Positions 7,592-50,411 of a stretch of 64,000 bases of DNA are shown here, piece by piece; the stretch's first letter is position 1, and each line of letters starts with the position of its first letter. The notes below the pieces were generated by a model, which saw nothing but the letters and a program-made list of their open reading frames with translations, did not search any database and was not told the DNA's origin. The position numbers and the translations under genes were made by a program. The stretch lies in IMG/VR virus record IMGVR_UViG_3300029122_000292; one strand, given 5' to 3'. This DNA is from a virus.

Positions 7592-7892
7592 CGCCGTAAT
7601 CCTCCTCACTGTCGTTATCGTATTCTTCCAACCCATATAGCTTATGATATAAATATCGGGTCAAAGAAGGGGACATAGGCGTATAGTCTTCCATCCAGAG
7701 CGTATCATACAGTGAAGCATCACCAATAACTTCCTGCCAGTCCGCGTATACTTGAATCGCGTCAATGATATTTTCTACTGTGACACTATAATTACGCACC
7801 GCATCAACTACGGCGAATCCAATATTAAAAATATCCTGTTTTGAAAATTCTTCTTCTTTCATAATAGTCCTCCTTATAGAAGCGATTTGCAC
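7584..7892 (-). CDS. hypothetical acidic protein (102 aa)
   Basis: ORF track. Confidence 0.5.
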   Translation of the reverse strand: MQIASIRRTIMKEEEFSKQDIFNIGFAVVDAVRNYSVTVENIIDAIQVYADWQEVIGDASLYDTLWMEDYTPMSPSLTRYLYHKLYGLEEYDNDSEEDYGDE

Positions 7893-8095
7893 CGAAGTGG
7901 CTTCTTTAGTTTATCTAATTGGTTGTAAATATCTGCGATTTGCTCTTCTATAGTTTTTATTCTATCCCATGCGGATTCTTCTACAGGTTGTTCTTTGGGT
8001 ATGACAATAGCTGAATTTTTTGCTAAATCGCTCGATATCCAATAACCATAAGGGTTCTCCGGATTTCCAATAAAATCTAAGTCAATAACATCCAT
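7874..8095 (-). CDS. small protein with C-terminal ...RCKSLL tail
   Basis: ORF track; AGGAG ribosome-binding site upstream; member of the CxSLL-tail set. Confidence 0.6.
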   Translation of the reverse strand: MDVIDLDFIGNPENPYGYWISSDLAKNSAIVIPKEQPVEESAWDRIKTIEEQIADIYNQLDKLKKPLRCKSLL

Positions 8096-8107
8096 TTGGC
8101 GTCTCCT

Positions 8108-8335
8108 TTACAGTAAACTGTGACATACAAATGATTTCTTTTTCTTTATTTCAATACTTACTTCAGGACACCGCTCACGAAAAAAATCATATATTGCTTT
8201 ATCTGAAATGCAATCAAGTCCAACTAACTGTCCATCCGAAATTAACAATTCATCATCATAAGACCTGATACTGTCTCCGCGAGCGACCGCATCTATCAGA
8301 AGTCTTGCTCCTTCTTCTGTCCATTCAATAATCAT
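8108..8335 (-). CDS. small protein with C-terminal ...VCHSLL tail
   Basis: ORF 8108..8350 trimmed to ATG 8335 (MIIEW...). That ATG overlaps the upstream TGA (ATGA) and is preceded by AGGAG encoded within the upstream tail codons. Confidence 0.6.
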   Translation of the reverse strand: MIIEWTEEGARLLIDAVARGDSIRSYDDELLISDGQLVGLDCISDKAIYDFFRERCPEVSIEIKKKKSFVCHSLL

Positions 8336-8544
8336 AAAAGGCTCCTGCAAATAAACGATTTCGAATTTCTAATCATATACACAATTTGATCGTATATTTC
8401 TTTATCGGTTCTTCCCCAAAATCCATAGTATTCAAAATCTGGTTTAATTTTGCTTTCATCTATATCAGGTGCAAATGGATAAAGCTTTTTATATTCTCTG
8501 ACGAAACCTTTAATCATATTGAGTTCATCAATCTCATCTCTCAT
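8332..8544 (-). CDS. small protein with C-terminal ...ICRSLL tail
   Basis: ORF track; tail codons TGC AGG AGC CTT TTA TGA carry the ribosome-binding site and start of the next gene. Confidence 0.6.
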   Translation of the reverse strand: MRDEIDELNMIKGFVREYKKLYPFAPDIDESKIKPDFEYYGFWGRTDKEIYDQIVYMIRNSKSFICRSLL

Positions 8545-8948
8545 AATAGGCTCCTACATCTGAGTGGCCGTCTACTGGTTCGAATAATATCTTCCAAGCA
8601 TTCTGGCACGACAGAAAACCCTTTAAACAAATCAAACGTATTGCGGTATATTAAATCATCTATATTTATCTGTCGCATTTTATTTTCACAGATGTATCGA
8701 ACATCAGCTTCTCCATACAGCTTAGTGAATAATTTGCAATATTCAAACGACTTGGCCAATCCAAGATCTTCATCAAAGTAGAACATAGTACACTGTGCAT
8801 TCATTTTACTATAGTCAAACTTTTCACGAAATTCATCCGGCGATTTGCATATTACGATTACTTTGCGGTGTTTTTGTACAGTGTCTAAATTATCATACCA
8901 GTTACATACTGCTTGGTAGTTCTCTGGCTTTACGAATAATACTCTCAT
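8541..8948 (-). CDS. 135-aa protein with C-terminal ...RCRSLL tail
   Basis: ORF track; ATGA-type overlaps with neighbours. Confidence 0.6.
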   Translation of the reverse strand: MRVLFVKPENYQAVCNWYDNLDTVQKHRKVIVICKSPDEFREKFDYSKMNAQCTMFYFDEDLGLAKSFEYCKLFTKLYGEADVRYICENKMRQINIDDLIYRNTFDLFKGFSVVPECLEDIIRTSRRPLRCRSLL

Positions 8949-8978
8949 TGCGGTTTCCTCTGTGGCGCTGCGGCGCTC

Positions 8979-9398
8979 TTATAACAAGCTGTGGCATACT
9001 AGATTCTTTTTATTTCGTTCATGCCATGATGCTTTGATTTTTACGACATGATCTGGGGTCCACATATAGTCAAGCTCGATAGGATGTGCTAAATCCAGAT
9101 TGCTATCCTTATTAACAAGTCGGTAATAATTCATATCATTAAGCTGATCGAATTCTTTTGCAAGCCGTGTCGCTACATCACTCATGGAATTATAGGTATA
9201 TCCGGGTCCAAACCATATCTGATGAAATATTTTTGAACTATCGTCTGCTCTTAAATACCATGCTCTAAAATCACGGTACGATTTGAATGGCATGACCCAT
9301 ACCATGTTATTATCGTTTAATGGGACGTATATCCCATTTTTGGCGTTATAATTTACAGAAGTCAGCATTGCGACTCTGGCGGTTACAGTGTAATTCAT
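8979..9398 (-). CDS. 139-aa protein with C-terminal ...VCHSLL tail
   Basis: ORF track; start ATG overlaps stop of 9395..9658. Confidence 0.6.
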   Translation of the reverse strand: MNYTVTARVAMLTSVNYNAKNGIYVPLNDNNMVWVMPFKSYRDFRAWYLRADDSSKIFHQIWFGPGYTYNSMSDVATRLAKEFDQLNDMNYYRLVNKDSNLDLAHPIELDYMWTPDHVVKIKASWHERNKKNLVCHSLL

Positions 9399-9658
9399 AG
9401 TAAACTCCTACACGTGAGAGGTTTTAAATACCATGGCGTTGGTTTTGGCTCCCACTGGTTAAACAAACGTTCAAAGTAGAACCTTTCGTTTTTCTCGTCC
9501 AAGCACAATCTCACGTCGTGATAATTCACATATTTAGCGTCGGTATCGGCGAAACATTTTAAAATAGCGGACATCTCATTGTAAGTTTCTTTGAAGTAAC
9601 TGGAACGTCCCGTTTGTACGTAATCAATCGCTTCTTTTATAATTTCTTCTCGTGTCAT
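9395..9658 (-). CDS. 87-aa protein with C-terminal ...TCRSLL tail
   Basis: ORF track; tail codons TGT AGG AGT TTA CTA TGA embed AGGAG and ATG of the downstream gene. Confidence 0.6.
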   Translation of the reverse strand: MTREEIIKEAIDYVQTGRSSYFKETYNEMSAILKCFADTDAKYVNYHDVRLCLDEKNERFYFERLFNQWEPKPTPWYLKPLTCRSLL

Positions 9659-9685
9659 ACTATTGGGTTCCTCTAACTGTTGAAT

Positions 9686-10033
9686 TTATAATAGGCTATG
9701 GCAAACAAATGATTTTTTAGATTGCATTGTATACTTGCCGACTAATTGAAGATATTTTTTGTAGATTGCCTCTGCGGCGTCTCCATCAATTGTTTCTATA
9801 TGTTGTTCAGACATTATATCGACTTTGAAACGTTCTATTGATGAATCAAGTATGGAAGCTAATTCTGAATCATAATGTATGTATCTGCGGTCTACATCGA
9901 CATGAATTACAATAGAATCTATTTTTTTATTAAGTTCTTCGCTAAGCTGTTCACAGATATCCTTACTTGCGAGTTCTAGTATTTCTTTCTCATTCTTCTT
10001 GTAATTAGTCATTCCAAAAACATCTGTTATCAT
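9686..10033 (-). CDS. 115-aa protein with C-terminal ...VCHSLL tail
   Basis: ORF track. Confidence 0.6.
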   Translation of the reverse strand: MITDVFGMTNYKKNEKEILELASKDICEQLSEELNKKIDSIVIHVDVDRRYIHYDSELASILDSSIERFKVDIMSEQHIETIDGDAAEAIYKKYLQLVGKYTMQSKKSFVCHSLL

Positions 10034-10494
10034 AGCAAACTCCTACAGGTCAGTTGCACCGTTGGTCTTCCTATGGTTGGATCGTCCGCGTCCTCGATTT
10101 CTGGGTGAAACGCAACTTCGGATGGATCATATGTAGCTATAGAGCAGGCGGCAATATTACGACCTCCTATGATATGTTGCATACATAAATCAACATCGTC
10201 GATTACAACTTGTTTTGCGTTATATCCAAAGCTGGCGAGTTGGAAATCTAAGGCGTTAAAAACTCGAATAGTCAGTCGTTTTCCCTCAGTATCAACATAG
10301 ACTTCTCGCGAATCAACTCTGTATCCTCTATATGTCCATTTCCCGCAAGATGATTCGCATAAAAATATTATTGTTTTTGTCACTAGCTCCACATTAAGAG
10401 ATGTTGGTACAATAATATCACAGTCATTTTCAATTGCGTATTTACATATTTGATAGGTGCGACCACCGCCGCGTGGGGCGAATATTTTATACAT
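10030..10494 (-). CDS. 154-aa protein with P-loop-like N-terminus (APRGGGRT) and C-terminal ...TCRSLL tail
   Basis: ORF 10030..10512 trimmed to MYKIF ATG at 10494, which has AGGAGG 6 nt upstream. Confidence 0.55.
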   Translation of the reverse strand: MYKIFAPRGGGRTYQICKYAIENDCDIIVPTSLNVELVTKTIIFLCESSCGKWTYRGYRVDSREVYVDTEGKRLTIRVFNALDFQLASFGYNAKQVVIDDVDLCMQHIIGGRNIAACSIATYDPSEVAFHPEIEDADDPTIGRPTVQLTCRSLL

Positions 10495-10511
10495 GCTATG
10501 CAACCTCCTCA

Positions 10512-11267
10512 TTACGCGGCTTCTGGTTTGCGTTCAATCAATGGGAAGATCCCGTCTTTCTTTAATAAATCATAGATGAACAGACGACCTTTTTGAGTCC
10601 AATATGTGTGTACGTGGCTATGTGAGATTCCATTAGTATCTTCAGTAATAGACGTCTTAGTTACCGTGTAGCCTTGCTCGGCGTATTCTTGATAAAGCAG
10701 CCAGATACGTCCCTGCTGATATTGTATACGACGAGATCGCAGTTCCTGATTCATCTTCTGAGCGCTCCATCCATAGTCTTTAGCAATAACACTGATAGGA
10801 AGAGCATCAGGAGTCTGAAGAACCACATCATAGTAAGATGCCTTTGGCTGCATCTCTGCAAGCTGTTGTGTTTGGATAGCTACAGTTTCCTGAAGTGCTT
10901 TTACGCGAGCATTTGCGATAAGAAGAGCACGCTGCATAATCGCATCAGGAGAGTTCCACTGTTCTTCAATTTTGATAAAATACTGGCGTGCAATCTTGCC
11001 ACGTTCATTGCGCTGAATCATTGCAATTTCTTTTGCCATCGGAATAGTAAGCTGATGATCGGTTCGAGGCTTTCCTGCGAGGCCATCAGACCTATTTTCC
11101 AAAAATGGAACATAGTCTTCATTTTCTGTAAAACCGTAATCACACATTCTCTTGAACCATGTGGTGTAATTACTGTCAACATGGAGGAAATCGTAAAGTT
11201 CTCGACCGCTTACGGTTGGGCGTTCAGGATTTTCATAATTGATAGGGATTAAGTCAGTCATATTCAT
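10512..11267 (-). CDS. phage antirepressor (AntA N-terminal domain plus KilA-C-like C-terminal domain)
   Basis: N-terminal RELYDFL...TWFKR...GFTENEDY matches the AntA family. Confidence 0.7.
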   Translation of the reverse strand: MNMTDLIPINYENPERPTVSGRELYDFLHVDSNYTTWFKRMCDYGFTENEDYVPFLENRSDGLAGKPRTDHQLTIPMAKEIAMIQRNERGKIARQYFIKIEEQWNSPDAIMQRALLIANARVKALQETVAIQTQQLAEMQPKASYYDVVLQTPDALPISVIAKDYGWSAQKMNQELRSRRIQYQQGRIWLLYQEYAEQGYTVTKTSITEDTNGISHSHVHTYWTQKGRLFIYDLLKKDGIFPLIERKPEAA

Positions 11268-21714: not shown

Positions 21715-22366
21715 GAATTTCCAGCAATTTTCTACATACATAATGCGAGTCCAGATGATATTATAAACGAAGTTTTCGCAGAGGGAACTCCGGTAGTGTG
21801 AAAACGCACCGCCGGGGTTTAATGCGGCTACTGGTTCTGCAGAACTGGTACTGGTCCCAAGCCCAGAAATGCAATCGCAAGTGGCGCACATAGCGTCATG
21901 ATCGAAGCGGTTGCACAAACAGAAGGGCGCTCCACCGCACTAGTGAAATTTGATTTGATTTTGAAGCAAAGGCCACGCTGATAAATCAATGATAAAAGTA
22001 AACTAGAGGGTGTTACTTGAAGTGAGCGAAACTAAACGAAAGGAGGGTTTATAGCTTGAATTGTAAAATCAGTTACCGCTCGCTAGGAGTGGTCTTTGGT
22101 GCAAGGGTCGCGTCTTACTCCAATGAGAAAATTTTCATGGGATGGCGATACAAACTGTTTTGACGTTTAACTGAAACTTCCAAATTAAATAGAATTGACG
22201 TTGCAAGTGCTCGTTGCATCCGAGCATAAGTTCGCATCATACATACGAGTTTAGCGGTAGTCGCAAATAGGCGTAATCGACCTATAAGGTTCGCTATAAT
22301 GCGGGGCTAGGTGATTCCCGAACGGACAAGTTAAACGTATGTTAAGGATAAGAAACCGGGCGACTG

Positions 22367-34616: not shown

Positions 34617-34874
34617 GTGAAGGTTTATGTTCTTTATGACTGTGTCGAAAATCCAGACGAGTGGGCGTTTGCTGGTGTTGAACACATTTATGCGAATCAT
34701 GCAGACGCGGTAGATCGGATGCAGGATTTGTTCTTAGAGTGTTTGAACGAACACGACATAAATAATGCAGAAAGTATGCGAGATAGCTATATTGACGATT
34801 GGGGAGCGCGTGTCGCGGACGTTCCGGCTGGTTATCGTCACACATGGACAATTACAGAGGAGACAGTTGTATGA
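34617..34874 (+). CDS. hypothetical protein (85 aa)
   Basis: ORF track. Confidence 0.45.
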   Translation: MKVYVLYDCVENPDEWAFAGVEHIYANHADAVDRMQDLFLECLNEHDINNAESMRDSYIDDWGARVADVPAGYRHTWTITEETVV

Positions 34875-35095
34875 AATACGATTTACATGTTGGGCAATTA
34901 GTTAGAATCGGCAATGAAGTGTCTGAAAACGATATGAATCGCAACAAAAGAGGGCGCATCGTAAGATTTGATAAAGATTACCCAGTTGTAGAGATGTTAG
35001 ACCCATTTACAAGTGGAGAAACAACGATTACTTGGTGCCCGCAGAGATTTTGGGAGCCGTGTCCAACAAAACTTACTTGCAAATCACTTCTGTGA
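34872..35095 (+). CDS. 74-aa SH3/KOW-like small protein with C-terminal ...TCKSLL tail
   Basis: ORF 34799..35095 trimmed to MKYDLHVGQLVRI. Paralog of 41540, 42637, 42926 and 45562. Confidence 0.55.
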
Positions 35096-35273: not shown

Positions 35274-35332
35274 GGTACAACGGGTGATTGCCCGTTTACA
35301 TATCAATCTTTAATTACAAAGGAGAAAACATT

Positions 35333-35755
35333 ATGAAAGCAATCGTTAAGTTCAACAATCTGTTCGTCACTTCCGCATACGATGTCGCTACCCTGAAGAA
35401 GGTCGAGAAGTTCCGTCCCGAGGCTTTGAAGCTGTATGAGGGCGAGGGCAAGGAGAAGAAGCTTGTGAGCGCCATTGCTGTTGCTTCTAAGGATGATATT
35501 AGCAAGTTCGGCGTGGCTTTTGCTCAGGATGCAGTCACTGGCGATAAGGTTGCCGTTTTGAGCCGTCCTGTTCCTGCTGGTATGAAGTCTGAGGCAGAGA
35601 TCAAGGAGTGGGTTCGCGACATGATTGGTCTGACCATTGTTCGCGGCACCAAGATCGAGGAGCAGATCGCAGCCGCTATGGAGTCCATCAATGCTGATGA
35701 GGCTGCCATGAATGCTGCAATCACTATCGATGGTGAGGACGCAGACGCCGAGTAA
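35333..35755 (+). CDS. hypothetical protein (141 aa), GC3-rich; probably abundant
   Basis: ORF 35288..35755 trimmed to MKAIVKF after AAAGGAGAAAACATT. Confidence 0.6.
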   Translation: MKAIVKFNNLFVTSAYDVATLKKVEKFRPEALKLYEGEGKEKKLVSAIAVASKDDISKFGVAFAQDAVTGDKVAVLSRPVPAGMKSEAEIKEWVRDMIGLTIVRGTKIEEQIAAAMESINADEAAMNAAITIDGEDADAE

Positions 35756-35852
35756 GAGCGCTGCTGAGGTTCCACGCCGGATGTTCCTGCGCAATACGTC
35801 CGGCATTTTAACGAGTAAACGATATTTTTCAAATTAAAAAGGAGTACATACT

Positions 35853-36092
35853 ATGATTAAGATTTGGGTTACCACTAATGACGACAAGATCGAGGACGTT
35901 GTTGCTACCAGCATGACCCCGAAGGACGTGTTCGCAAAGCATGGCGTGAACTACGCCAATGGCCAGAGCACTCTGGATGGCTGCATTCTGACGGTGGCAC
36001 AGCTGAACACTCCGCTGTCTGAGCTGGGCGTCGGCGATGAGGTGTATCTGGCCTCCATCTCCAAGCACGACAATGCGACTGGTATGAACTGA
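35853..36092 (+). CDS. 79-aa protein with possible MoaD/ThiS-like beta-grasp (ubiquitin-like) fold
   Basis: MIKIWV... N-terminus and GDEVYLASISKHDNATG near the C-terminus resemble MoaD (MIKVLFF... GDEVAFFPPVTGG). No terminal GG unless processed. Confidence 0.35.
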   Translation: MIKIWVTTNDDKIEDVVATSMTPKDVFAKHGVNYANGQSTLDGCILTVAQLNTPLSELGVGDEVYLASISKHDNATGMN

Positions 36093-36235
36093 TCGCGCTG
36101 ATCCGAAAATAAACAACTGAATTCGTTATTGGTTACAACGATATTCTAAACACTGCAGCCGCTGGCAGGCCGGTTAAAGTCTGCCTTATATGTGTCCAGT
36201 ATCTGGGCTTTTAAATTAAACAGGAGGAAATACAT

Positions 36236-37753
36236 ATGGCTTTCACAGCTTATTCCAGCAAGATCGGTTCGAGAGATTGCGACGAAGCATATCCGTTGAT
36301 TCTGAATTGCGACAATAGCAATCTCAACGATAATGTGATGTTGTCTGTACTGCGCGTACTGATCAATGATGACCGTATCAAGCATTCTATTTCGGGAGGG
36401 CATCGCATTCAGTCAATTATTGATTGCCAACAGTTCTATATGGGCGACGACGAAAAGTTCACTAAGGACATGTTCGTTCATGAAGATAACGCTTTCAATC
36501 AGATGAAATTTGGCATCATGTTTCAGACGATCGACGATAAGAAAGCAGACGCCATTATTTCTGAGTTCAAGAAGTACAATGCGGATTACGAAGCTGCCGG
36601 TTGGAAGATCATGGATGTCGCAGCTAAGTACATCGATAAGAATGGCAACGTCTATGTATATCAGAATGAAAAGAAGCAGGGTGTTGTCGTTGTTTGTGCT
36701 AAGAAGAATCTGATTCAGGCCATGCACATGGCGGCGAGTTGTTTGCCAAACCTGATGCCGTGGTTTTTCGCTGATCAGCCGCTGACTGATGATGAGAAGG
36801 CGATGCTGCGTACTCTTTATGATCAGGACAACGAAGCTTTCGGCAAATACATGGAGAAGGCATACGAGACCGGCGATTTCTATGGTAAGAAGTTGCGTGG
36901 CGCTCTGAAGGGATTTTGCAAGAAGGATTATGCAAACGAAATTACCCGGCAGGAGCGATATATTCGTGAAATCCAAGATGAAATCGAAAGAAAATATAAC
37001 GATATCCGTGAGAGAAATAAAAATCTTGAAGAAGCTCAATTTAAACTCACTATGATCATGGACCGTGCTTGCTGCACTGAGGATGACGAAGCTGCAATTG
37101 TTAATTTCCTGAAGCGCTGCAAGACGCTGGTTTATCTTGACTCCAATAGTGATCGAATCTCTATTGGTTATGTTGGCACGCTAAACGATTGTGATGAGGG
37201 CGAGTTCCGCACTTGTGTTGAGAAAAAGGCAAATAGTCGAAGCTACATTTTTCAGCGTTCGCCGTATGACACGGAACTTACGAAAGATTTCTTTGTGTCA
37301 ATTTGGAAGACCCATCGGTTCGCTATTCGCACCTACTGTGAATGGCGACTGTATTCCAGCTGCAAGGTTGAAGCAATTCGTGGTTCTGATATGCAAGGTC
37401 GCTCTGATTTGATGAAGGATCGTATTCGTCAGCCCCATATCGATCGGCATGCGTGCTATAGCGGTTATCGAGAGATGCTCAATGCGCTTAGTGTAAAACA
37501 CGATTACATTGGCGTCCTGACTACGATTATTGGTTCAAGCGCATCTATCAACTGGAAGGATGGCACCGTTGTAAGCGACCTCATGTACGATTTGTTTGAC
37601 GAATACTATATCAAAACTCGTAAGTGTATCGAGGATAACGCGGGTAATCTGTACACGGTGGCAGAAGTATTTGATATTCTCAAGAACGAAAAGGACGCAG
37701 CAGCAACAGCAGAAGCAGTAAAGAAGGAGGTCGCTAAAGATGAAGCCCATTAA
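36236..37753 (+). CDS. hypothetical protein (505 aa)
   Basis: ORF track; GGAGGAAATACATATG. Confidence 0.6.
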   Translation: MAFTAYSSKIGSRDCDEAYPLILNCDNSNLNDNVMLSVLRVLINDDRIKHSISGGHRIQSIIDCQQFYMGDDEKFTKDMFVHEDNAFNQMKFGIMFQTIDDKKADAIISEFKKYNADYEAAGWKIMDVAAKYIDKNGNVYVYQNEKKQGVVVVCAKKNLIQAMHMAASCLPNLMPWFFADQPLTDDEKAMLRTLYDQDNEAFGKYMEKAYETGDFYGKKLRGALKGFCKKDYANEITRQERYIREIQDEIERKYNDIRERNKNLEEAQFKLTMIMDRACCTEDDEAAIVNFLKRCKTLVYLDSNSDRISIGYVGTLNDCDEGEFRTCVEKKANSRSYIFQRSPYDTELTKDFFVSIWKTHRFAIRTYCEWRLYSSCKVEAIRGSDMQGRSDLMKDRIRQPHIDRHACYSGYREMLNALSVKHDYIGVLTTIIGSSASINWKDGTVVSDLMYDLFDEYYIKTRKCIEDNAGNLYTVAEVFDILKNEKDAAATAEAVKKEVAKDEAH

Positions 37754-38636
37754 TATCACGGAGCAGGTTGTAGCAGATATGGCACGTGAATTTGTTCAGG
37801 AGCTGTATAAGACCGGTAGGGTTAAGACGGATTCTTTCTCATACAAGAAGAATTTTGCGTCTGTTAAAAAGGATGCTGTCGAGGTGAATTTCACCTATGA
37901 AGCGTATTCTCAGATGTTTGCGTTGATTGATCACTTCGATTGTGAGGTTGCATGGCGCGGCATTGTGAATCGTATCGATAAGACGCATTTTCAGATTACC
38001 AAGATTCTGCTGTATCCTCAGACTGTGACTGGTACCACAGTGGACACCGATCAGGAAGAATTTTCAAAGTGGTTTCAGGCGCTGCCTGTTGAAACGATTC
38101 GCAACCTGAGATTTCAGGGACACAGCCATGTCGATTTCGGTGTAACGCCGAGCAGTCGCGATATGGAGGATCAGTGGCGATTCATTGACGGACTCAAGCC
38201 GACGAGTTATCAGATTTTTATGATTTGGAACAAGAAGCGTCAGTATAACGTTCGCGTCATTGATCTGGCCGACAATGTCATCTATGAGGGAGCCGATGTC
38301 AAGGTTACTGTTGGAGATTTTGACTCGACTCGATTTCTCGAGGATGCAGACAAAACGGTTCGAAAGCGCCCTGTATATGTCGCAAGCACAGTCGCAAATT
38401 ACGGAGCTTATGGAGCAGGCACCTATTATGGTAAAGCAGTTACGCCGCAAAAAACGTACCCGCAAACAGTTACCACGCAAACGCCAGTGCCGCAAATCAA
38501 GACGGTAACTGGCGCAGCGGCTCCGAAAGTCAAGGAAGTGTCTGAGACTCGATATCCATTGGTCAATCATTACAAGGAGAATCCAGAAGATCTTGATACG
38601 TGCTGGAATTCCAGCTGTTTTCCGTATGACAATTAA
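37740..38636 (+). CDS. JAMM/MPN+ family metallopeptidase (298 aa)
   Basis: Canonical JAMM motif HSHVDFGVTPSSRD (HxHx7Sx2D) with upstream Glu. Confidence 0.65.
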   Translation: MKPINITEQVVADMAREFVQELYKTGRVKTDSFSYKKNFASVKKDAVEVNFTYEAYSQMFALIDHFDCEVAWRGIVNRIDKTHFQITKILLYPQTVTGTTVDTDQEEFSKWFQALPVETIRNLRFQGHSHVDFGVTPSSRDMEDQWRFIDGLKPTSYQIFMIWNKKRQYNVRVIDLADNVIYEGADVKVTVGDFDSTRFLEDADKTVRKRPVYVASTVANYGAYGAGTYYGKAVTPQKTYPQTVTTQTPVPQIKTVTGAAAPKVKEVSETRYPLVNHYKENPEDLDTCWNSSCFPYDN

Positions 38637-38651
38637 AGAAAGGACTACAAA

Positions 38652-39326
38652 ATGAATCTGAGTAAGCTTGAAATGGTATTCAACCCCGATGATATCAGCG
38701 GCCAGATCCACATTATTGGTTGTGGTTCGGTTGGCTCTACTGTGGCGGAACTTCTTGCACGGTATGGTCTGAAGAATTTCACGCTGTGGGATATGGACGA
38801 GGTTGAAAGCAAGAATATCGTCAACCAGATGTTCTTCGCCAACAATATTGAAGCTCCAAAGGTCGAGGCGGTTCGCGATATTATCTGTGCCATCAATCCT
38901 GATGCCAAAGATGAAATTGTTCTGAAGCCGAATGGTTGGCAGGGTGAGATGATTCGCGGTTATGTATTCCTCGCGGTCGACAATATCGAAATTCGCAAGC
39001 AATTCATGGAGGCGAACAAGTACAATCCGAATATCAAGGGTGTGTTTGATGTCCGCACCGGGTTCCATGATGCACAGTGCTGGGCAGCAGATTGGAGTAA
39101 GGAAAAAGACCGAGAGAATTTATGGAACTCTATGAATTTCTCTCATGAAGATGCACAGGCTGGCACTCCGGTTTCTGCATGTGGCATCGTTCAAGGTCTC
39201 GCCCCGACTGTTCGTTTCGTGTGTTGTTTGGCGGTTACGAACTTTATCAATTTCGCGACTAATATCGCACCTTTGAAGAAAATGATCGTTGCAAATCCGT
39301 ACACTTTTAACGTTACGGCTGCATAA
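38652..39326 (+). CDS. ThiF/MoeB-family E1-like adenylyltransferase (224 aa)
   Basis: Rossmann motif IIGCGSVGSTVAELLARYGL followed by LWDMDEVESKNIVNQ, as in the E1/MoeB/ThiF nucleotide-binding site. Confidence 0.65.
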   Translation: MNLSKLEMVFNPDDISGQIHIIGCGSVGSTVAELLARYGLKNFTLWDMDEVESKNIVNQMFFANNIEAPKVEAVRDIICAINPDAKDEIVLKPNGWQGEMIRGYVFLAVDNIEIRKQFMEANKYNPNIKGVFDVRTGFHDAQCWAADWSKEKDRENLWNSMNFSHEDAQAGTPVSACGIVQGLAPTVRFVCCLAVTNFINFATNIAPLKKMIVANPYTFNVTAA

Positions 39327-39375
39327 AGAATAAATAAAAAAAAATCGTGATGAATTACTGTTGAAATATACAGTC

Positions 39376-39393
39376 CTGCCGGATGACCGACAG
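39376..39393. promoter_or_regulatory. 18-bp imperfect palindrome CTGCCGGATGACCGACAG, copy B, at the head of the 290-nt leader upstream of the RT
   Basis: Identical at 18/18 to copy C and 17/18 to copy A. Confidence 0.5.
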
Positions 39394-39620
39394 GTTCGTA
39401 AAGGTAAGATCATATACATCCCACCGGGAAACCGAGGCGTGTGATCGCATGCGATGTACGTCGGCTCCGCAGGTATGCTGATTCGCTGATCGAAATAATC
39501 AACGTAGACACGTGCCGGCAATGAGCTCAAAACGCAAACCCGCAGGAAGACGTCCCGTCGAAGGCACCTCCCTGAGCATACAAACCACCATTTAGATCAC
39601 GATTTAGAAGAGGTAAACAT
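39394..39620 (+). ncRNA. candidate structured ncRNA / RT-associated RNA in the non-coding region upstream of the RT
   Basis: About 230 nt with no ORF; contains the perfect 12-nt palindrome ATCGCATGCGAT and several GC hairpins. Identity as msr/msd-like RNA is inference only. Confidence 0.3.
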
Positions 39621-40856
39621 ATGTACGTTACTTATTGGAATCCGCCGAGAACAAGGCAGATTACGTTTGATGAAATCCTTAGTGGAGTCGTTGACGTGAA
39701 CCAGTTGAAATATGCTGGCGATGAAACTTCTACTCGAACTGTACAGCGTAATGGGTTGAATGATCGTCTCGTAGCAATTACAAACGTTACCAATATGATT
39801 GCACGGCTCGCGGAATTCAATCAGAAATACGCTCGTCTTGAAGCAGTACGTGACCTGTCGACGTATTACTATCACTTTGAAATTCCCAAGAAGACTGGTG
39901 GCGTTCGTCCAATTGATGCACCGAACAATGAACTGAGCGATGCGTTGGTTGAGTTGCGGACGCTGTTAAAAAGTTTCATGATTGCTGATTATCACACGGC
40001 AGCACACGCATATATCAATGGGCGCGGCACTCTGAGTGCAATTAAAAAGCATCAGGCGGGACACAGATATACAGTAAAAGATCGTGAGACTGGGAAAGAA
40101 AAGATCGTCACCTATGAAAACAACTGGGCTGTCAAGTTTGACTTTCATGGATTCTTCCCGAGCTCCACTCCTGAGTTTATCTACAGTATGTTCAGAAAGA
40201 TTTATCCGTTTTCTCTCATTATGAAGGATCGAAATGGATACAATCAGCTGACTAAAGCGATGCGCCTGTGCTTCTTGAACGGCGGTCTTCCGCAGGGAAC
40301 GCCAATCAGTCCGTGGATCACGAACGTTATGATGATCCCGTTTGATTATATGTTAAACAAGAAGCTTTCTTACAAATATACCATGAAAGACGGCATTTCT
40401 CGCACTTTTACATACACCAGATATGCAGACGATATCACCATCAGCTGCTATTTGAGTTTTGACCCGATGGAAATGCAGGATATTATCAAAGAGACGTTGG
40501 ACGCAATCAATGCTCCGTTTACTTTGAATGAAGAAAAAACGCATTATGGTAATCGGCATTCGAGCGAAAACTGGATGCTCGGTCTGATGTGGAACGCCAA
40601 TAACGATATCACAGTCGGATGGCGCAATTTTAAGGACTTCAAGAAGATGGCATCTAATTACATCATCTGCAAGAAAGAAGGGAAAACGTGGGACCTTGAA
40701 GACTTGCAGCAGTTTAATGGCAGGCTGAATTACTACCGTATGGTAGAAAAAGAATCGGTTGACACGGTGATTTCTCGGTACAACGAAAAGTATCGTGTTG
40801 ATATGATGGCAATGCTCAAAGCTGACTTAAAACCAAAAGAAGGAGTTGTTTTCTAA
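39621..40856 (+). CDS. reverse transcriptase, retron/group-II-like clade (411 aa)
   Basis: RT motifs IPKKTGGVRPI, FDFHGFFPS, GLPQGTPISP, YTRYADDITIS; N-terminal similarity to retron RTs. Confidence 0.85.
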   Translation: MYVTYWNPPRTRQITFDEILSGVVDVNQLKYAGDETSTRTVQRNGLNDRLVAITNVTNMIARLAEFNQKYARLEAVRDLSTYYYHFEIPKKTGGVRPIDAPNNELSDALVELRTLLKSFMIADYHTAAHAYINGRGTLSAIKKHQAGHRYTVKDRETGKEKIVTYENNWAVKFDFHGFFPSSTPEFIYSMFRKIYPFSLIMKDRNGYNQLTKAMRLCFLNGGLPQGTPISPWITNVMMIPFDYMLNKKLSYKYTMKDGISRTFTYTRYADDITISCYLSFDPMEMQDIIKETLDAINAPFTLNEEKTHYGNRHSSENWMLGLMWNANNDITVGWRNFKDFKKMASNYIICKKEGKTWDLEDLQQFNGRLNYYRMVEKESVDTVISRYNEKYRVDMMAMLKADLKPKEGVVF

Positions 40857-41194
40857 TGATTGAAATGATGTGTAGAGATGGCGGCACTCCAGTTGAATTG
40901 CTCGATCAAGCGGCAAGTGTCGTAGAGGAATCCATTGGGTGTCCAGTTGACCTGTTGGATATCGACGACCACAGAGCAATGGTCTATTGGGGGCCGTCTG
41001 ATGTTGCAAGCGCAATCAAGGAGCTTGGCATCAAAGAAATCGATGCAGAGGATATGAGCTTATGTGCAGATCTCTTGTGCGATTTTGAAGTGAATATTCA
41101 TCAGGCAATGCTTGAGGCCGGACACGACGCTCTACAGAGCTGTTTGGAATGTCTTGTTGATGAACTGCGAAAACAGGACAAAGAATCCAAGTAA
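40856..41194 (+). CDS. small acidic protein translationally coupled to the RT (112 aa)
   Basis: ATGA overlap with RT stop. Confidence 0.55.
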   Translation: MIEMMCRDGGTPVELLDQAASVVEESIGCPVDLLDIDDHRAMVYWGPSDVASAIKELGIKEIDAEDMSLCADLLCDFEVNIHQAMLEAGHDALQSCLECLVDELRKQDKESK

Positions 41195-41241
41195 TTATAT
41201 ATTGTAATCTCTTTTGAATATCGGGCGTTTTACGTCGCGAG

Positions 41242-41259
41242 CTGCCGGATGACCGACAG
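41242..41259. promoter_or_regulatory. 18-bp imperfect palindrome CTGCCGGATGACCGACAG, copy C
   Basis: Followed by about 280 nt of hairpin-rich non-coding sequence (for example GCTGCCTGAGTTGGCAGC). Confidence 0.5.
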
Positions 41260-41539
41260 TTATGAAGAATACCATAGCACGCTCATACGGGCTCCATGGG
41301 CTGCCTGAGTTGGCAGCCTCGCCCTCCTGAGCTATGGATCAAATTAGTTCGCAAGCACGGAGTCTCCGTTCTGCAGCCTAGATCCCAGCAGAGCTGGAGA
41401 TCGCGGCTGCAATCGCTGCGACTCATTGGCCATCAGAACATTTACTCGACAATGCTTCCGGGATCAAAGATCCCTCCAAATTATCTCGCAAATGTTCTTC
41501 CAGCCAACTGTTACTCACAATTTAGAAAAGAGATTGATT

Positions 41540-41803
41540 ATGGATTACAAATATAAAATTGGACAAAAAGTACGAATTCGGAAAGACTTGACAGCTGGTG
41601 CAGAATATCCAATGCAGAGCGGAGAAAGCTATGGTTGCAATCCGGGAGTTAATGAAGATATGGAAAGATACCGTGGTCAACTTATGACAATCGATCGCCA
41701 AACATACGGTGTTTATACGCTCTGTGAGGACAACGAATATTGGAGTTGGACTGACACGATGTTTGAGTCTCCAAAACCACTTACATGTAAAAGTCTTTTG
41801 TAA
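41540..41803 (+). CDS. 87-aa SH3/KOW-like small protein with C-terminal ...TCKSLL tail
   Basis: ORF 41426..41803 trimmed to MDYKYKIGQKVRIRKDL. Confidence 0.55.
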   Translation: MDYKYKIGQKVRIRKDLTAGAEYPMQSGESYGCNPGVNEDMERYRGQLMTIDRQTYGVYTLCEDNEYWSWTDTMFESPKPLTCKSLL

Positions 41804-41817
41804 AGGAGTGAATTTTA

Positions 41818-42633
41818 ATGGCAGAAACCGCAAAGAAAGTGGCACAAAAAACCATTCTTTTCCCAGTTGAAGATCAGCCTGCAAAACTCGTCGTTACAGA
41901 GGACGATATTGAACGAATTATTCAGCAGGCAGTTAAAAGTGCCACTGCAACGAAAAAAGCACGGAAACCTCGTCGGACGGACAGTCTTTATCTCAAGGAT
42001 GGGCGTAGAAAGCCAACCCCGGCAGATCCTATCAAGTCAAAGGAAGATTTTAAGAAAATTGTTGATTATCTTGGATCAAATGGCACTGAAGAAATTGCGC
42101 TCAGGAACAAAACACTATTCATTCTCGGCTGTTCAATTGGTGTTCGATGCGGCGATTTGTTGAAGCTTAAAACGGCTGATGTTTATTATGAGAACGCTCA
42201 TGTAAAAGATCATGTTGAGCTGATCGAACAGAAGACCGGCAAGCGAAACGTGTGTAAGATTTCTCATATGGCAAAAGAAGCTTTAAGAGAATATTATCAG
42301 GCAATTAGTTTTCGAATTGACCGCGACACGCTTCTTTTTCAGAGCAAGAAAGGTGGACAGCTTAACGTTAGATCAGTGAGCAACCTTTTGAAGAAGGCTG
42401 GTAAGGCGTGTGGTTTGAATATTGAGTTATCTACTCACACTATGCGTAAAACTTATGCTATGGCCGCGTTACAGAGTGCAGAAGGTACAGTTGATGAAGC
42501 GAACATCGTGAGTATTCTGCAAAACAAATTTAACCACAGTAATCAGCGTATTACGATGAGATATATCAAAATGGATCAAGAAAAACTTGATGAAGTCTCT
42601 GAGAATGTTTCCGACTGGTTTGAAGGAGAATAA
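41818..42633 (+). CDS. tyrosine recombinase / phage-integrase-family catalytic domain protein (271 aa)
   Basis: Arg I (GVRCGDLLKL), HxxR (THTMRKTYA) and catalytic Tyr (ITMRYIKMD). Confidence 0.7.
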   Translation: MAETAKKVAQKTILFPVEDQPAKLVVTEDDIERIIQQAVKSATATKKARKPRRTDSLYLKDGRRKPTPADPIKSKEDFKKIVDYLGSNGTEEIALRNKTLFILGCSIGVRCGDLLKLKTADVYYENAHVKDHVELIEQKTGKRNVCKISHMAKEALREYYQAISFRIDRDTLLFQSKKGGQLNVRSVSNLLKKAGKACGLNIELSTHTMRKTYAMAALQSAEGTVDEANIVSILQNKFNHSNQRITMRYIKMDQEKLDEVSENVSDWFEGE

Positions 42634-42636: not shown

Positions 42637-42909
42637 ATGAATTATAGATTTAAACCCGGTGACAAAGTGACCGTTAGAAAAGATTTGGCGACATATGAAA
42701 CGTATCATATGTTATCTGGAGAAACCCCATGTGATGCCATTATTGCTACTTATTCTATGGAAAATCTTCGAGGGAAACAAGTCACAATCGAGAACTATGA
42801 TTGTTGTGGGAGTGCAATGTGTTACAGGGTAAAAGAAAGCTCCAGATATTGGGCAGATGAAATGTTTGAAGAGTCTAAAAAGCCGTTTACGTGTAAAAGT
42901 CTATTATGA
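42637..42909 (+). CDS. 90-aa SH3/KOW-like small protein with C-terminal ...TCKSLL tail
   Basis: ORF track; KPGDKVTVRKDL...WADEMFE. Confidence 0.6.
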   Translation: MNYRFKPGDKVTVRKDLATYETYHMLSGETPCDAIIATYSMENLRGKQVTIENYDCCGSAMCYRVKESSRYWADEMFEESKKPFTCKSLL

Positions 42910-42925: not shown

Positions 42926-43210
42926 GTGTCGAAAAGCAAGTACAAATATAAGAATGGAGAAGCAATTCGCGTCAGGGAAGATCTTCAATCTGGAACAGTT
43001 TATTACATGAGATCTGGTCCAGAACCGGATGCCAATGGTATTGAGACGTCATGGAGTGGACGTGGACAAGTAGGTTATCGTGGACAAATTGTACATATTT
43101 CTCACAAAGCAAACGGTCGATACAAAATTCTTGAAGACGGAAAAACATATTATTATACGGATGAAATGTTCGATCGTCCAAAGAACTTGATTTGCAAAAG
43201 TTTGTTGTGA
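42926..43210 (+). CDS. 94-aa small protein with C-terminal ...ICKSLL tail
   Basis: ORF track; GTG start after AGAGG. Confidence 0.55.
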   Translation: MSKSKYKYKNGEAIRVREDLQSGTVYYMRSGPEPDANGIETSWSGRGQVGYRGQIVHISHKANGRYKILEDGKTYYYTDEMFDRPKNLICKSLL

Positions 43211-43489: not shown

Positions 43490-45562
43490 ATGTCTGATTT
43501 CAAGAAATTTCGTGCACTGCTGCAGAACCACTTCAATGAGATGGTGAAGGGTGAGAATCCACTGTTTATCACCGATGCAGACGAGGATGAACTGTACAAT
43601 CTGTATCTTGATAGTTTCCCGGCCGGCACAAATGAGCTGTTCCGTAAGCGGCGCGAGTATGACTGTTCCTGCTGCCGCCGTTTTGTGAAGAATATCGGCA
43701 AGCTGGTGGCGTTTGACAAGAATTATAATTTGATTTCCATCTGGGATTTCGATGCAAAGTCTGCCAAGTATCAGCCTGTTGTTGATACGCTGGCTGCCTA
43801 TGTAAAGAGCCGCGCCATTGTGAATCCGTACTTTGTCAGTCGCAATATGATCGGTTCTGGGAATATGTTCGGCACCGAGATGAACTACGAGTATGATGAA
43901 AACCACAATGATGTATATACTTGGGATCATTTCGCAGTCAAGATTCCGCAGCGTTTTATTACCAGTGGAGATGACGTGGCTACCAAGATGGCACAGTGGC
44001 GTGACTCCGCAAACGTGTTCAAGCGTTCTCTGGAAGAGCTAACCATGGAGGCTGTTGATACTGTGCTGGAGCTGATTGCTCAGAATAGTCTGTATCGCGG
44101 CAAGGAGTTTGAGCGATCTGTAAAGGAGTTTAAGCACGATAAGATTGACTATGACAAACTGTCTGTTAATGAAAAGCTTGCCTTTGTATGGCTTGCCCCT
44201 ACGTATGCTACGGCGGCGCAGCTTCGTATTCGTAACACCGCTATCGGCACCCTTCTTATCAATTTGAGCGAAGGTATGAACGTGGATGCAGCCGTTACTG
44301 CCTTCGAGAAAGTTGTTGCTCCCGCAAACTATAAGCGTCCCAAGGCGATTTTCACCAAGAAGATGTTGGAAGATGCACAGAAGACTGTCACCGAGCTGGG
44401 CTATATGAGCAGTCTGGGTCGTCGGTTTGCTACTCTGGATGATATCACCGCCAACAATATCTTGTTCTGCAACCGTGATGCTGCTTCTCGTATTGCTGGT
44501 GCTACAAATCCGTTTGAAGCAATGGCTAAGACTGTTGCGATTGATCCCAAGAAGTTTAACCGTGCAGAAGAAATTGGCATCGACAAGTTTATCAAAGACG
44601 TGCTGCCGACTGCAACTGGTTTGGAACTGTTCATGGAAAATCGTTTCGAGAAGAATATGATGTCTCTGATTGCACCGCAGGATAAGACTGCGCCGAGCAT
44701 GTTCAAGTGGCCGAATGGTTTCAGCTGGGCATATACCGGTAATGTGACTGACAGTCAGATCCGCGAGAACGTCAAGAACGCTGGTGGCAAAGTCGATGGC
44801 GTGCTGCGTTTCTCTATTCAGTGGAACGATAAGCCGGGTGAATGGGATGAAAACGATCTCGATGCCCACTGTGTTGAACCGAATGGCTTTGAGATCTATT
44901 ACGGCGACAAACGAGATTTGCGTACCGGTGGTAATCTGGACGTGGATATCATTCATCCTAATTGTAATAAGGCGGCTGTTGAGAACATCACTTGGTCTGA
45001 CATCAAGAAGATGAAGGATGGCGAGTATAACTTTTCTGTTCATTGCTTCTCTAACCGTGGCGGCAAAACCGGCTTCCGCGCAGAGATTGAATTTGATGGT
45101 CAAATCTACTCCTTTAATTATAATATTCCGCTGCGTCAGACTCAGATTGTTTCTGTTGCTACTGTTGTGTTGAAGGATGGGCAGTTTACTATTAAGGAAC
45201 ATCTCAATAGTTCTACTTCTTCCCGTGAGATCTGGGGTGTGAATTCCAATCAGTTCGTACCTGTGTCTGTGGCGATGTACTCTCCGAACTACTGGGATGA
45301 GCAGACTGGCAATGGCAACCGTCACTACTTCTTCATGCTCAAGGATTGCGTCAACCCTGAAAAGCCCAATGGTTTCTACAACGAATTCCTGAAGGCGGAA
45401 CTGCTACAGCATAAGCGTGTGTTCGAGGCTCTCGGTTCTCAGATGGCGGTTCAATCGGTGGATGACCAGCTGTCTGGTGTTGGCTTCTCTGAGACGAAGC
45501 ACGACTCCCTCATTGTCAAGGTGCAAGGCGCTACTGAGCGAGTTCTGAAAGTGGTGATTTAA
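43490..45562 (+). CDS. hypothetical protein (690 aa), GC3-rich
   Basis: ORF track; AAGGAGAATAATAACAATG; no recognisable motifs. Confidence 0.7.
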   Translation: MSDFKKFRALLQNHFNEMVKGENPLFITDADEDELYNLYLDSFPAGTNELFRKRREYDCSCCRRFVKNIGKLVAFDKNYNLISIWDFDAKSAKYQPVVDTLAAYVKSRAIVNPYFVSRNMIGSGNMFGTEMNYEYDENHNDVYTWDHFAVKIPQRFITSGDDVATKMAQWRDSANVFKRSLEELTMEAVDTVLELIAQNSLYRGKEFERSVKEFKHDKIDYDKLSVNEKLAFVWLAPTYATAAQLRIRNTAIGTLLINLSEGMNVDAAVTAFEKVVAPANYKRPKAIFTKKMLEDAQKTVTELGYMSSLGRRFATLDDITANNILFCNRDAASRIAGATNPFEAMAKTVAIDPKKFNRAEEIGIDKFIKDVLPTATGLELFMENRFEKNMMSLIAPQDKTAPSMFKWPNGFSWAYTGNVTDSQIRENVKNAGGKVDGVLRFSIQWNDKPGEWDENDLDAHCVEPNGFEIYYGDKRDLRTGGNLDVDIIHPNCNKAAVENITWSDIKKMKDGEYNFSVHCFSNRGGKTGFRAEIEFDGQIYSFNYNIPLRQTQIVSVATVVLKDGQFTIKEHLNSSTSSREIWGVNSNQFVPVSVAMYSPNYWDEQTGNGNRHYFFMLKDCVNPEKPNGFYNEFLKAELLQHKRVFEALGSQMAVQSVDDQLSGVGFSETKHDSLIVKVQGATERVLKVVI

Positions 45563-45834
45563 TGGCTCGTTACAAAGTCGGAGACAAGGTACGCTTAATC
45601 GATAATTTTGTGCAATACGAAGAGTATCATATGCGAGATCGGAATAACAATCCCGGATATACTATAACAGTCAAGTGGTCATTAGAAGAAAGAATGAAAC
45701 TTGCTGGAAAAATTGTGACGATTGCTGAAGTTGGAGAATACTACCGAATCGAAGAAGACAACCATAGTAAACATTGGACTGATGATATGTTTGTTGGCAC
45801 GGCAAAATGTCTTGTTTGTCGGTCGTTACTGTAA
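45562..45834 (+). CDS. 90-aa SH3/KOW-like small protein with C-terminal ...VCRSLL tail
   Basis: ORF track; ATGG overlap with upstream stop. Confidence 0.6.
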   Translation: MARYKVGDKVRLIDNFVQYEEYHMRDRNNNPGYTITVKWSLEERMKLAGKIVTIAEVGEYYRIEEDNHSKHWTDDMFVGTAKCLVCRSLL

Positions 45835-50407: not shown

Positions 50408-50411
50408 GTTC

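Follow-up and report, generated by a model that had tools for sequence, protein, structure and literature searches.

Several systems are known in which a short terminal peptide gives otherwise unrelated proteins a common fate, among them the capsid-targeting sequence of phage T4, encapsulin cargo peptides, ssrA-type degrons, and PDZ ligands. Translational coupling through an ATGA overlap, with the Shine-Dalgarno (SD) sequence placed inside the upstream gene, is likewise common in bacterial and phage operons, including the trp genes and many phage late operons. Here, we describe a tandem array of eight small genes whose products all end in the same type of C-terminal peptide tail, and in which the codons of some of these tails also hold the ribosome-binding site and start codon of the next gene. 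The array was found in a 64,000-nucleotide stretch of the virus record IMGVR_UViG_3300029122_000292, which was analyzed as a whole and is referred to below as the window. The tail, or tag, would work like a T4 targeting sequence, an ssrA-type degron, or a PDZ ligand, yet it fails defining features of each of these families that could be tested. Literature searches for the motif strings of the tag and for comparable phage C-terminal motifs gave nothing relevant; we found no earlier description of such a terminal tag for these phages, although terminal address tags as such are already known. The explanation that we consider probable overall is that of a compact string of small accessory genes, each product of which would carry a short, flexible C-terminal tag that is read in trans and is dual-coded with a coupling signal.

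A C-terminal tail conserved as a peptide

All eight consecutive minus-strand open reading frames (ORFs) of 10512..7874 are closed by C[RHK]SLL and a stop codon (Table 1), in agreement with the initial annotation, which had described a tandem array of CxSLL-tailed genes at this position. Five further tailed genes are encoded on the plus strand, with ends at 35095, 41803, 42909, 43210, and 45834, which brings the number of tails in the window to 13. Among all 613 ORFs of at least 45 amino acids (aa) in the window, 13 end in C.SLL, whereas composition predicts 0.015 and 200 shuffles gave 0.005 on average. The extent first given to the array, eight genes over 10512-7874, needs to be adjusted at both sides: gene 1 more probably starts at ATG 10494, behind GAGGAGG (154 aa), than at ATG 10512, and the string of genes runs on through three tail-less genes into the gene for a YonO-like RNA polymerase. 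The start of gene 7 is ATG 8335, not TTG 8350.

A codon survey covered every motif-ended ORF from the window and about 200 related loci, and yielded 562 distinct contexts of 105 nt. Both Ser codon families were used for the serine of the tail (AGT 187, TCT 127, TCA 98, TCG 73, AGC 71, and TCC 6), the leucines at positions -2 and -1 were written with all six codons, and the cysteine was encoded by TGT (313) or TGC (233). The stop codon was TGA in 300 contexts and TAA in 261. As every synonymous codon is used at the conserved residues, the constraint acts on the protein: the tail is conserved as a peptide and not as DNA, and the earlier proposal that the peptide itself is selected is borne out.

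These data also bear on the alternative that the conserved 3′ ends constitute an element of the DNA or RNA, for example a cassette boundary, an attC-like recombination site, or a signal for RNA processing or coupling, to which the peptide is incidental. Such an element would fit the organization of the tailed genes as same-strand arrays of small ORFs, the differences in array content between relatives, and the presence of a tyrosine recombinase gene among the tailed genes of the plus strand. However, synonymous diversity is complete, including the switch between AGY and TCN for Ser and the use of six Leu codons, and only about 9 of the 18 bases are fixed. In addition, nine of the 13 tails in the window have neither AGGAG nor an overlap, and the lineage-specific versions of the tail (see below) differ in their amino-acid pattern and share no nucleotide core. 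We therefore regard this alternative as most improbable, and an integron-like attC site or DNA repeat is ruled out by the codon diversity at conserved residues, with no conservation seen at the nucleotide level.

The window and the polymerase-region loci together gave 270 distinct tailed proteins, which, once trimmed of their nine C-terminal residues, fell into 18 families without mutual detectable similarity; by this comparison, the tag sits on at least 18 otherwise unrelated families of small proteins. Ten of the 13 tailed proteins of the window (those of the eight array genes and two plus-strand paralogues) were scanned against Pfam without any match, and a scan of two tailed proteins against PHROGs found no function.

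A family of about 90 aa, with four clear copies in the window, allowed the tail to be compared with the domain that precedes it. Its fold is a generic SH3-like barrel, without a significant match in the PDB. In the AlphaFold model of the product of 42637..42909, residues 1-80 have block-mean predicted local distance difference test (pLDDT) values of 89-98, whereas the last 10 residues have a pLDDT of 55 and no secondary structure. A profile of the domain collected 2,647 relatives, most of them tail-less and many of them tandem multi-domain proteins, while tails sit on single-domain versions of 85-95 aa. In one tail-less homologue (P0052), the same ...WTDEMFEE domain end is followed by another C-terminus. 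The low pLDDT of the end, together with a tail-less homologue that has a different C-terminus, indicates that the tail is an appended, exposed tag, and in the model it forms a flexible extension. The tag is probably modular as well, as judged from the tail-less homologue and from orthologues of gene 1 whose domains share 76% identity but whose tails differ: the sequence ends in ...GRPTLQLTCRSLL in one genome and in ...NNTECVCASLL in another, so that the respective tail ends are QLTCRSLL and ECVCASLL. In tail-less proteins of 200-1100 aa, the SH3-like domain often occurs in two to six tandem copies. A role of the tail as a polyprotein cleavage site was rejected, as no internal C.SLL was present at the domain boundaries of the multi-domain relatives.

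At least five lineage-specific forms of the tail, which we refer to as dialects, were distinguished. The tails of this window belong to a basic dialect, K-K-[PSQ]-[LF]-x-C-[KRH]-S-L-L. Others are an acid dialect, [ND]-E-C-[VYIC]-C-[ED]-S-L-L; a Phe dialect, G-[VILF]-x-F-x-S-L-L; an Asn dialect, P-F-x-C-x-N-L-L, found in a syntenic 145 kb contig; and a Thr/Ile dialect, C-x-[T/I]-L-L. Common to all versions are a free Leu-Leu terminus, a residue at -3 that is small and polar, and either Cys or a hydrophobic side chain at -5 as well as at -7, an alternation as in a β-strand. The core of the tag accordingly comprises Leu-Leu with a free carboxylate, preceded by a small polar residue at -3 (in this window Ser), a position -4 open to any residue, and a position -5 taken by Cys or a hydrophobic residue; the stretch from -10 to -6 is specific to the phage lineage. 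In the motif profiles of the basic, acid, and Phe dialects, Leu-Leu-COOH is 94-99% conserved.

Within a genome, the dialect is uniform. In total, 89 contigs were essentially pure in dialect, and in 39 of 39 comparable contigs, the same dialect was used in the polymerase-side array and in the region of a gene for a 690-aa protein, which lies about 35 kb away on the other strand. Orthologues of gene 1, and likewise of gene 5, were found in both the basic and the acid dialect. Alleles of core genes, on the other hand, cross dialects: RNA polymerase alleles do so in identity classes of 99, 92, 70, and 63%, and the maximum identity between dialects reaches 99.6% for the polymerase, 98.8% for NAMPT, and 95% for the 690-aa protein. 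As core-gene alleles cross dialects, the change in step is not simply that of two isolated lineages, and these comparisons show the tag changing in step across all tagged genes of a genome. Joint change of a short peptide across many unrelated proteins is the hallmark of co-evolution with a single reader shared by all.

The dialects further bear on the role of the cysteine. Position -5 is Phe in all tails of one dialect and Ser in two tails of another locus (L204), showing that Cys is not essential, and chemistry at this residue (thiolactone formation, lipidation, or other) was rejected as the basis of the tail. Similarly, an AgrD-type thiolactone peptide (autoinducing peptide) was rejected because Cys is dispensable and because the stop codon directly follows the tail, with no charged extension. 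No AgrB-like gene was found among the window proteins scanned.

Tail codons and the start of the next gene

In four of the eight array genes (stops at 10030, 9395, 8541, and 8332), the tail and stop are spelled TGY-AGG-AGY-YTN-YTA-TGA. This 18-base pattern, TGYAGGAGYYTNYTATGA, has four exact matches in the window, all on the minus strand (10047-10030, 9412-9395, 8558-8541, and 8349-8332), and none in 100 dinucleotide-preserving shuffles. At each of the four junctions, AGGAG is followed after 6 nt by an ATG that overlaps the stop codon as ATGA (at 10033, 9398, 8544, and 8335). The overlapping ATG is the first ATG of the downstream ORF and, except at 8335, also its first start codon; the frame of the ORF opens just 3-11 codons further upstream. 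The other four junctions of the array are SD-carrying spacers of 27, 30, 12, and 11 nt: three CHSLL genes and one CKSLL gene end in TAA, and each spacer has its own GAGGA, AGGAG, or GGAGG. The initial annotation was therefore correct in placing AGGAG and the ATGA overlap within the tail codons, for these four junctions, and in noting that the CHSLL genes lack an embedded AGGAG and have their ribosome-binding site after the stop. Its description of an operon of eight tightly coupled genes holds for the four overlapping junctions, but not for the other four, which are spacers of 11-30 nt with an SD.

The spelling of the Arg-Ser pair was tallied in 201 distinct contexts around the polymerase gene. 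Where it was written AGG-AGY, ATGA followed in 38 of 39 cases and GTGA in the remaining one. Other spellings of Arg-Ser were followed by an overlap in 2 of 11 cases, with none for AGG-TCG, AGA-TCG, or CGG-TCG, and an overlap never followed a His codon at -4. AGG-AGY is thus used solely with overlaps. A control for this rule is provided by the CRSLL tail on the plus strand of the window (gene ending at 45834), which is spelled CGG-TCG and followed by a spacer, without overlap; none of the five plus-strand tailed genes uses AGG-AGY. AGG is the rarest Arg codon: across 20 long genes of the window, it accounts for just 4% of the codons for Arg, so that only 1.8% of Arg-Ser pairs would be expected to read AGG-AGY. 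Random codon choice was looked for across the relatives and was not seen, and the proposed superposition of tail and coupling signal is supported by the link between AGG-AGY and overlaps in 39 of 39 cases.

The tag leaves position -4 free (K, R, H, E, D, N, and others are found) and the Ser at -3 can be written as AGY, so that a full SD fits inside the tag at any junction where stop and next start overlap. At an overlap junction, the phage writes Arg-Ser as AGG-AGY and thereby sets AGGAG 6 nt ahead of the ATGA start, while with His or Lys at -4, the gene ends in TAA and the SD follows at once. Tag and coupling signal appear, from this spelling, to be two independent constraints packed into the same 18 bases. 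Among the relatives, the SD at non-overlapping junctions usually lies directly after or across the stop codon, most often 11-14 nt before the start. Of 163 open ATGA or GTGA overlaps in relatives, 124 have no embedded SD (acid dialect, with GAA-TCN or GAG-AGY); the embedded AGGAG is an option open to the basic dialect and is not needed for coupling.

As a coupling device, the junction is ordinary in kind: like other ATGA couplings, it has a 4-nt overlap, and the final codons of the upstream ORF contain an AGGAG that precedes the start by 6 nt. The unusual feature is that the SD is written into a conserved peptide motif, as its codons double here as positions -4 and -3 of the tag.

Genomic setting

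The window originates from a human-gut phage of about 145 kb, the host of which probably belongs to the Bacillota. Its relatives are contigs of 145-150 kb from human-gut viromes, and among cultured phages, the nearest ones have Thomasclavelia ramosa (39% identity in the polymerase) and Enterocloster as hosts. In tblastn comparisons, the RNA polymerase of the window showed 39% identity to that of Thomasclavelia phage TR-TP1 and 23% to yonO of SPbeta. The allele classes of this polymerase are exchanged among phages irrespective of their tail dialect. No C-terminal ending was enriched among the proteins of TR-TP1. No prophage copy was detected in GTDB genomes, in which the sole close match was a 4.7 kb contig binned with a Peptococcaceae metagenome-assembled genome. 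The array may be part of a unit that is read by the host polymerase, and would then be early, for which the evidence is weak (Table 1).

Some relatives of the basic, acid, and Phe dialects encode a transfer-messenger RNA (tmRNA) with a tag nearly identical to that of the window (Table 1), and others lack it. In the transfer RNA (tRNA) cluster (32554-33653, plus strand, and loci L169-L195), all relatives examined have three tRNA-Leu genes (CAA, UAG, and UAA), and the cluster of the relatives also contains tRNA-Gly, tRNA-Pro, and either tRNA-Met or tRNA-Ile. One Rfam tRNA, at 32996-33064, was missed by ARAGORN. The Leu-Leu codons of the tails are rich in TTA, CTA, and TTG. A match to the twister-P5 ribozyme was found at 21777-21866 on the plus strand (47.1 bits, with a gathering score of 37.6), in a stretch from approximately 13.1 to 22 kb with a higher G+C content (0.44-0.49) and few convincing long ORFs.

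The gene cluster for nicotinamide adenine dinucleotide (NAD) salvage is 94-99% conserved across most relatives, and is probably a counter to host defences that deplete NAD. The gene for the 690-aa protein and the 127-aa gene that follows it share 80-92% identity with a different, tail-less phage backbone, which suggests that they form a mobile or very widely conserved two-gene unit. As the 26-27 tail-less loci around the 690-aa gene represent this different genome backbone, their gene content is uninformative as a control.

Table 1. Coordinates of the tailed genes and of other features of the window.
Coordinates	Strand	Feature	Remarks
13258-13230	-	Sigma-70-like site	TTGCAA-17-TATAAT; only good match on the strand; promoter-like sites not above chance number
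13070-11724	-	PIN-PhoH	Upstream of array
11267-10512	-	Antirepressor	Upstream of array
10030..10512	-	Tailed gene 1	160 aa from ATG 10512; ends QLTCRSLL; AGGAG 10044-10040; stop overlaps gene 2 ATG 10033-10031
9686..10033	-	Tailed gene 2	115 aa; ends SFVCHSLL-TAA; 27-nt spacer with AGAGGAA before gene 3
9395..9658	-	Tailed gene 3	87 aa; ends PLTCRSLL; AGGAG 9409-9405; ATGA overlap with gene 4 ATG 9398-9396
8979..9398	-	Tailed gene 4	139 aa; ends NLVCHSLL-TAA; then 30-nt spacer with GAGGAAA
8541..8948	-	Tailed gene 5	135 aa; ends PLRCRSLL; AGGAG 8555-8551; ATGA overlap with gene 6 ATG 8544-8542
8332..8544	-	Tailed gene 6	70 aa; ends SFICRSLL; AGGAG 8346-8342; ATGA overlap with gene 7 ATG 8335-8333
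8108..8335	-	Tailed gene 7	75 aa; ends SFVCHSLL-TAA; AGGAG directly after stop; 12-nt spacer
7874..8095	-	Tailed gene 8	73 aa; ends PLRCKSLL-TAA; GGAGG directly after stop; 11-nt spacer to ATG 7862 of tail-less gene
7862-7584, 7636-7415, 7412-7062	-	Three tail-less small genes	Continue the same-strand string; lead into the YonO-like RNA polymerase gene
7045-4496	-	YonO-like single-subunit RNA polymerase	DFDGD motif; Pfam RdRP 2.8e-14
29113-29499	+	tmRNA	Rfam 96.1 bits; tag ANYNSYRCAA; flanked by tRNA-Pro and tRNA-Met
34868..35095	+	Tailed gene	Ends KLTCKSLL-TGA; no coupled downstream gene; aligns weakly with SH3-like 90-aa family
35288..42633	+	Dialect-divided block	Alleles never cross dialects; candidate reader location
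in 35288..42633	+	155-aa protein gene	
35853-36092	+	Candidate ubiquitin-like protein	79 aa; conserved K-x-D-N-A end and 1-4 variable residues, like a ubiquitin-like precursor
36236-37753	+	505-aa protein	Weak RWD/UBC-like fold matches
37740-38636	+	JAMM/JAB peptidase	JAMM motif; PADLOC JAB match only E = 0.0034, no Pfam or PDB sequence match
38652-39326	+	ThiF/E1 enzyme	Pfam ThiF 7.4e-21; PADLOC CBASS E1-E2 model 1.6e-15; PDB relatives UBA5, MoeB, MccB, Cap2
39621-40856	+	Retron-type reverse transcriptase	
in 35288..42633	+	112-aa protein gene	
41540..41803	+	Tailed SH3-like paralogue	Ends PLTCKSLL-TAA, then AGGAG
41818-42633	+	Tyrosine recombinase	
42637..42909	+	Tailed SH3-like paralogue	90 aa; ends PFTCKSLL
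42926..43210	+	Tailed SH3-like paralogue	94 aa; ends NLICKSLL
43490-45562	+	690-aa protein	PHROG 1735; DUF8224 in homologues
45562..45834	+	Tailed SH3-like paralogue	90 aa; ends CLVCRSLL
48696-52631	+	NAD-salvage/ADP-ribose cluster	NAMPT, macro domain protein, NAD synthase, isochorismatase-family (nicotinamidase-like) protein

Proposed reading of the tag and possible fate of the tagged proteins

From the change of the tags in step, we infer that one co-evolving reader acts on the tag in trans. If a single receptor has a drifting specificity, all tags of a genome must change together, which would give rise to the five or more dialects. Such a factor would read the free C-terminus together with the lineage-specific residues upstream of it. 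The hydrophobic alternation at -7, -5, and -1 and the need for a free C-terminus suggest that the tag may bind as an added β-strand with its carboxylate held, in the style of PDZ domains and degron readers. The class I PDZ motif is x-S/T-x-hydrophobic-COOH, as in the DSLL end of the β-2 adrenergic receptor. The tails of the Ser dialects resemble such ligands in having Ser at P-2, Leu at P0, a variable P-3, and the alternation of a β-strand, but here P-1 is an invariant Leu, and Asn, Thr, or Ile takes the place of Ser at P-2 in some dialects. No PDZ domain was matched by Pfam among 40 proteins of the window, which represents 64 kb of the genome of approximately 145 kb. Other terminal or linear motifs differ more plainly. 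Encapsulin cargo peptides of the LTVGSLRR type have a Gly-Ser-Leu core and basic residues behind it, whereas the tails close with S-L-L-COOH, lack the Gly, and have no residue behind Leu-Leu; compared with the β-clamp motif QL[SD]LF, they have Cys or Phe instead of Gln at the first position and a variable, usually charged residue at the second.

Several candidates for the reader were considered and rejected. The RNA polymerase has alleles that are common to different dialects and nearly identical between them, and within 10 kb of its gene, no non-tail family divides by dialect. The tag of the tmRNA, AN[YN]NSYRCAA, does not differ between the basic, acid, and Phe dialects, and many tail-bearing relatives lack the tmRNA. 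The dialect-divided block on the plus strand (Table 1) remains as a candidate location. Here, the maximum identity between dialects is 48% for the 79-aa candidate ubiquitin-like protein, 52% for the 505-aa protein, 53.5% for the JAMM peptidase, 73% for the ThiF protein, and 68% for the reverse transcriptase, against 95-99% for the flanking core genes, and the genes immediately downstream of the block cross dialects freely. The JAMM motif E..HxHx7Sx2D (EVAW.G, FQGHSHV.....PS..D) shows no variation among 38 distinct sequences of the basic, acid, and Phe groups, taken from the loci around the 690-aa gene. The stretch 35853-40856 of the block (plus strand) forms a module that is conserved across the clade and strongly diverged between dialect groups. 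Homologues of the gene at 24783-25471 also divide strictly by dialect.

A number of observations weigh against a tag that is read by a common factor and superimposed on a coupling signal. The codon and overlap counts come from phylogenetically related contexts and therefore exaggerate how many events were independent. The orthologue of gene 5 has, in 41 loci of the acid dialect, the end EC(Y)VCRPLL, with a fixed change from Ser to Pro at -3 (ECVCRPLL; L003-L072, for example the ORF of L065 ending at 6648), so that even core positions of the tag tolerate change. Given the many overlaps without an SD, the embedded AGGAG may add little to coupling. The reader was not found among the tmRNA, the RNA polymerase, or the genes within 10 kb of the latter, and the dialect-divided non-tail genes that were seen, in the block and at 24783-25471, are accessory genes only, the division of which could reflect linkage rather than function. 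In one acid-dialect contig (L148, IMGVR_UViG_3300045988_142958), seven tails are kept although the genes for the 505-aa protein, the JAMM peptidase, the ThiF protein, and the reverse transcriptase are gone; this natural deletion of about 6.5 kb (at 8632-9725 of L148) also takes the 112-aa and recombinase genes and leaves the 155-aa and ubiquitin-like genes in place.

What the tag, if read in trans, does for its carriers is a matter of speculation. It would set a common fate for early accessory proteins, and we rank timed removal through a phage-encoded adaptor first, recruitment to the ubiquitin-like/E1/JAB module next, and loading into the virion third, with other fates, including peptide signalling, taking up the remainder. 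As a degradation tag, it would offer its Leu-Leu end to a host AAA+ protease (ClpXP, ClpCP, FtsH, or Lon) and its upstream residues to a phage adaptor, which would give the carriers a timed lifetime; we put this forward tentatively, as a possibility that falls well short of an expectation. The ssrA tag is likewise read in two parts, by SspB and ClpX, and the tail shares with ssrA-type degrons a disordered position at the extreme C-terminus, non-polar last residues, and an invariant end preceded by a variable stretch that would be read separately. The gene string, preceded by a sigma-70-like site and followed by the gene for the phage RNA polymerase, is also probably early. On the other hand, the tail differs from these degrons in sequence and is encoded by the gene rather than added co-translationally, it neither resembles nor co-varies with the tag of the phage's own tmRNA, and the 64 kb window yielded neither a protease nor an adaptor. 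That the tail is instead the recognition element of a phage ubiquitin-like system, with the tagged proteins as its substrates or cargo, seems doubtful to us. In its favor, the module adjoins the plus-strand tailed genes, is present in 48 of 53 tail-bearing loci, and has alleles that never cross dialects; the ThiF protein is a clear E1, the JAMM motif is invariant, and the 79-aa protein has a precursor-like end. Prokaryotic ubiquitin-like systems with an E1 and a JAB peptidase are known, namely Bil and Cap2/Cap3 of the cyclic-oligonucleotide-based antiphage signaling system (CBASS), and the module resembles these in its ThiF/E1 enzyme, its JAMM peptidase, its candidate ubiquitin-like protein, and a possible E2/RWD-like protein. 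The tails, however, have Leu-Leu ends rather than Gly or Ala; the natural substrate of the E1 would be the 79-aa protein, and bulky Leu-Leu ends are unlike those of known E1 substrates. Moreover, L148 keeps its tails without the E1 and JAMM genes, two other tail-bearing loci (L153 and L160) have no module within 10 kb, and the link between module and tails is a genetic association, which linkage alone may explain since other accessory genes are also tied to dialect.

Loading of the tagged proteins into the head, for injection with the DNA as anti-defence or takeover factors, we hold to be rather unlikely. The internal proteins of T4 are directed into the head by an N-terminal capsid-targeting sequence that is removed by the prohead protease, and as in T4, a short terminal peptide is the sole part shared by unrelated, hypervariable small proteins from polymorphic loci (18 families here). 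The dialects would be accounted for if the phage encoded a reader in its capsid, scaffold, or portal, and the array lies directly upstream of the RNA polymerase gene, which in relatives stands at the head of the late structural region. In contrast with T4, however, the tag is C-terminal, with neither a conserved cleavage motif or recognizable protease site upstream of it nor a Gly-Ser-Leu cargo motif, and its genes look early: a promoter-like site of the host type precedes the arrays, which have antirepressor, PhoH, and anti-defence genes for neighbors. No dialect-linked allele was seen in the 10 kb downstream of the polymerase gene, and the cultured relative TR-TP1 lacks such tails. Very unlikely, in our assessment, is a release of the C-terminal octapeptides by proteolysis after lysis, as lineage-specific communication peptides in the manner of AimP, Phr, or XIP. 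The arbitrium peptide AimP, Phr peptides, and XIP are likewise cut from the C-terminal end of their precursors, the tails resemble pheromones of the XIP/SHP type in size and hydrophobicity, lineage-specific dialects are a hallmark of peptide signalling systems, and the phage is distantly SPbeta-like through its YonO-type polymerase. Yet the carriers are folded proteins of 70-200 aa without a secretion signal, no TPR/RRNPP-type receptor was found in the window, and the scans of GTDB genomes gave no sign of lysogeny.

In its most specific form, the proposal of a tag read in trans amounts to a private protein-addressing system, in which 15-25 fast-changing small effectors would share a C-terminal tag for a single phage receptor of drifting specificity, with the ubiquitin-like/RWD-E2/JAMM/E1 module as the best candidate for this reader. 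We consider this version an outside prospect; if true, it would represent a phage ubiquitin-like system that recognizes its clients by a C-terminal degron-like motif. Independently of its reader, the tag marks a whole class of small phage proteins that are otherwise unannotatable, and the dual-coded junctions provide a clean natural case in which a free motif position carries a translation signal. The dialects, in turn, constitute a natural co-variation experiment for finding the reader. If found, this reader would reveal the means by which a large phage of the gut controls or directs the accessory proteins of its arsenal, and it could supply orthogonal peptide tags.

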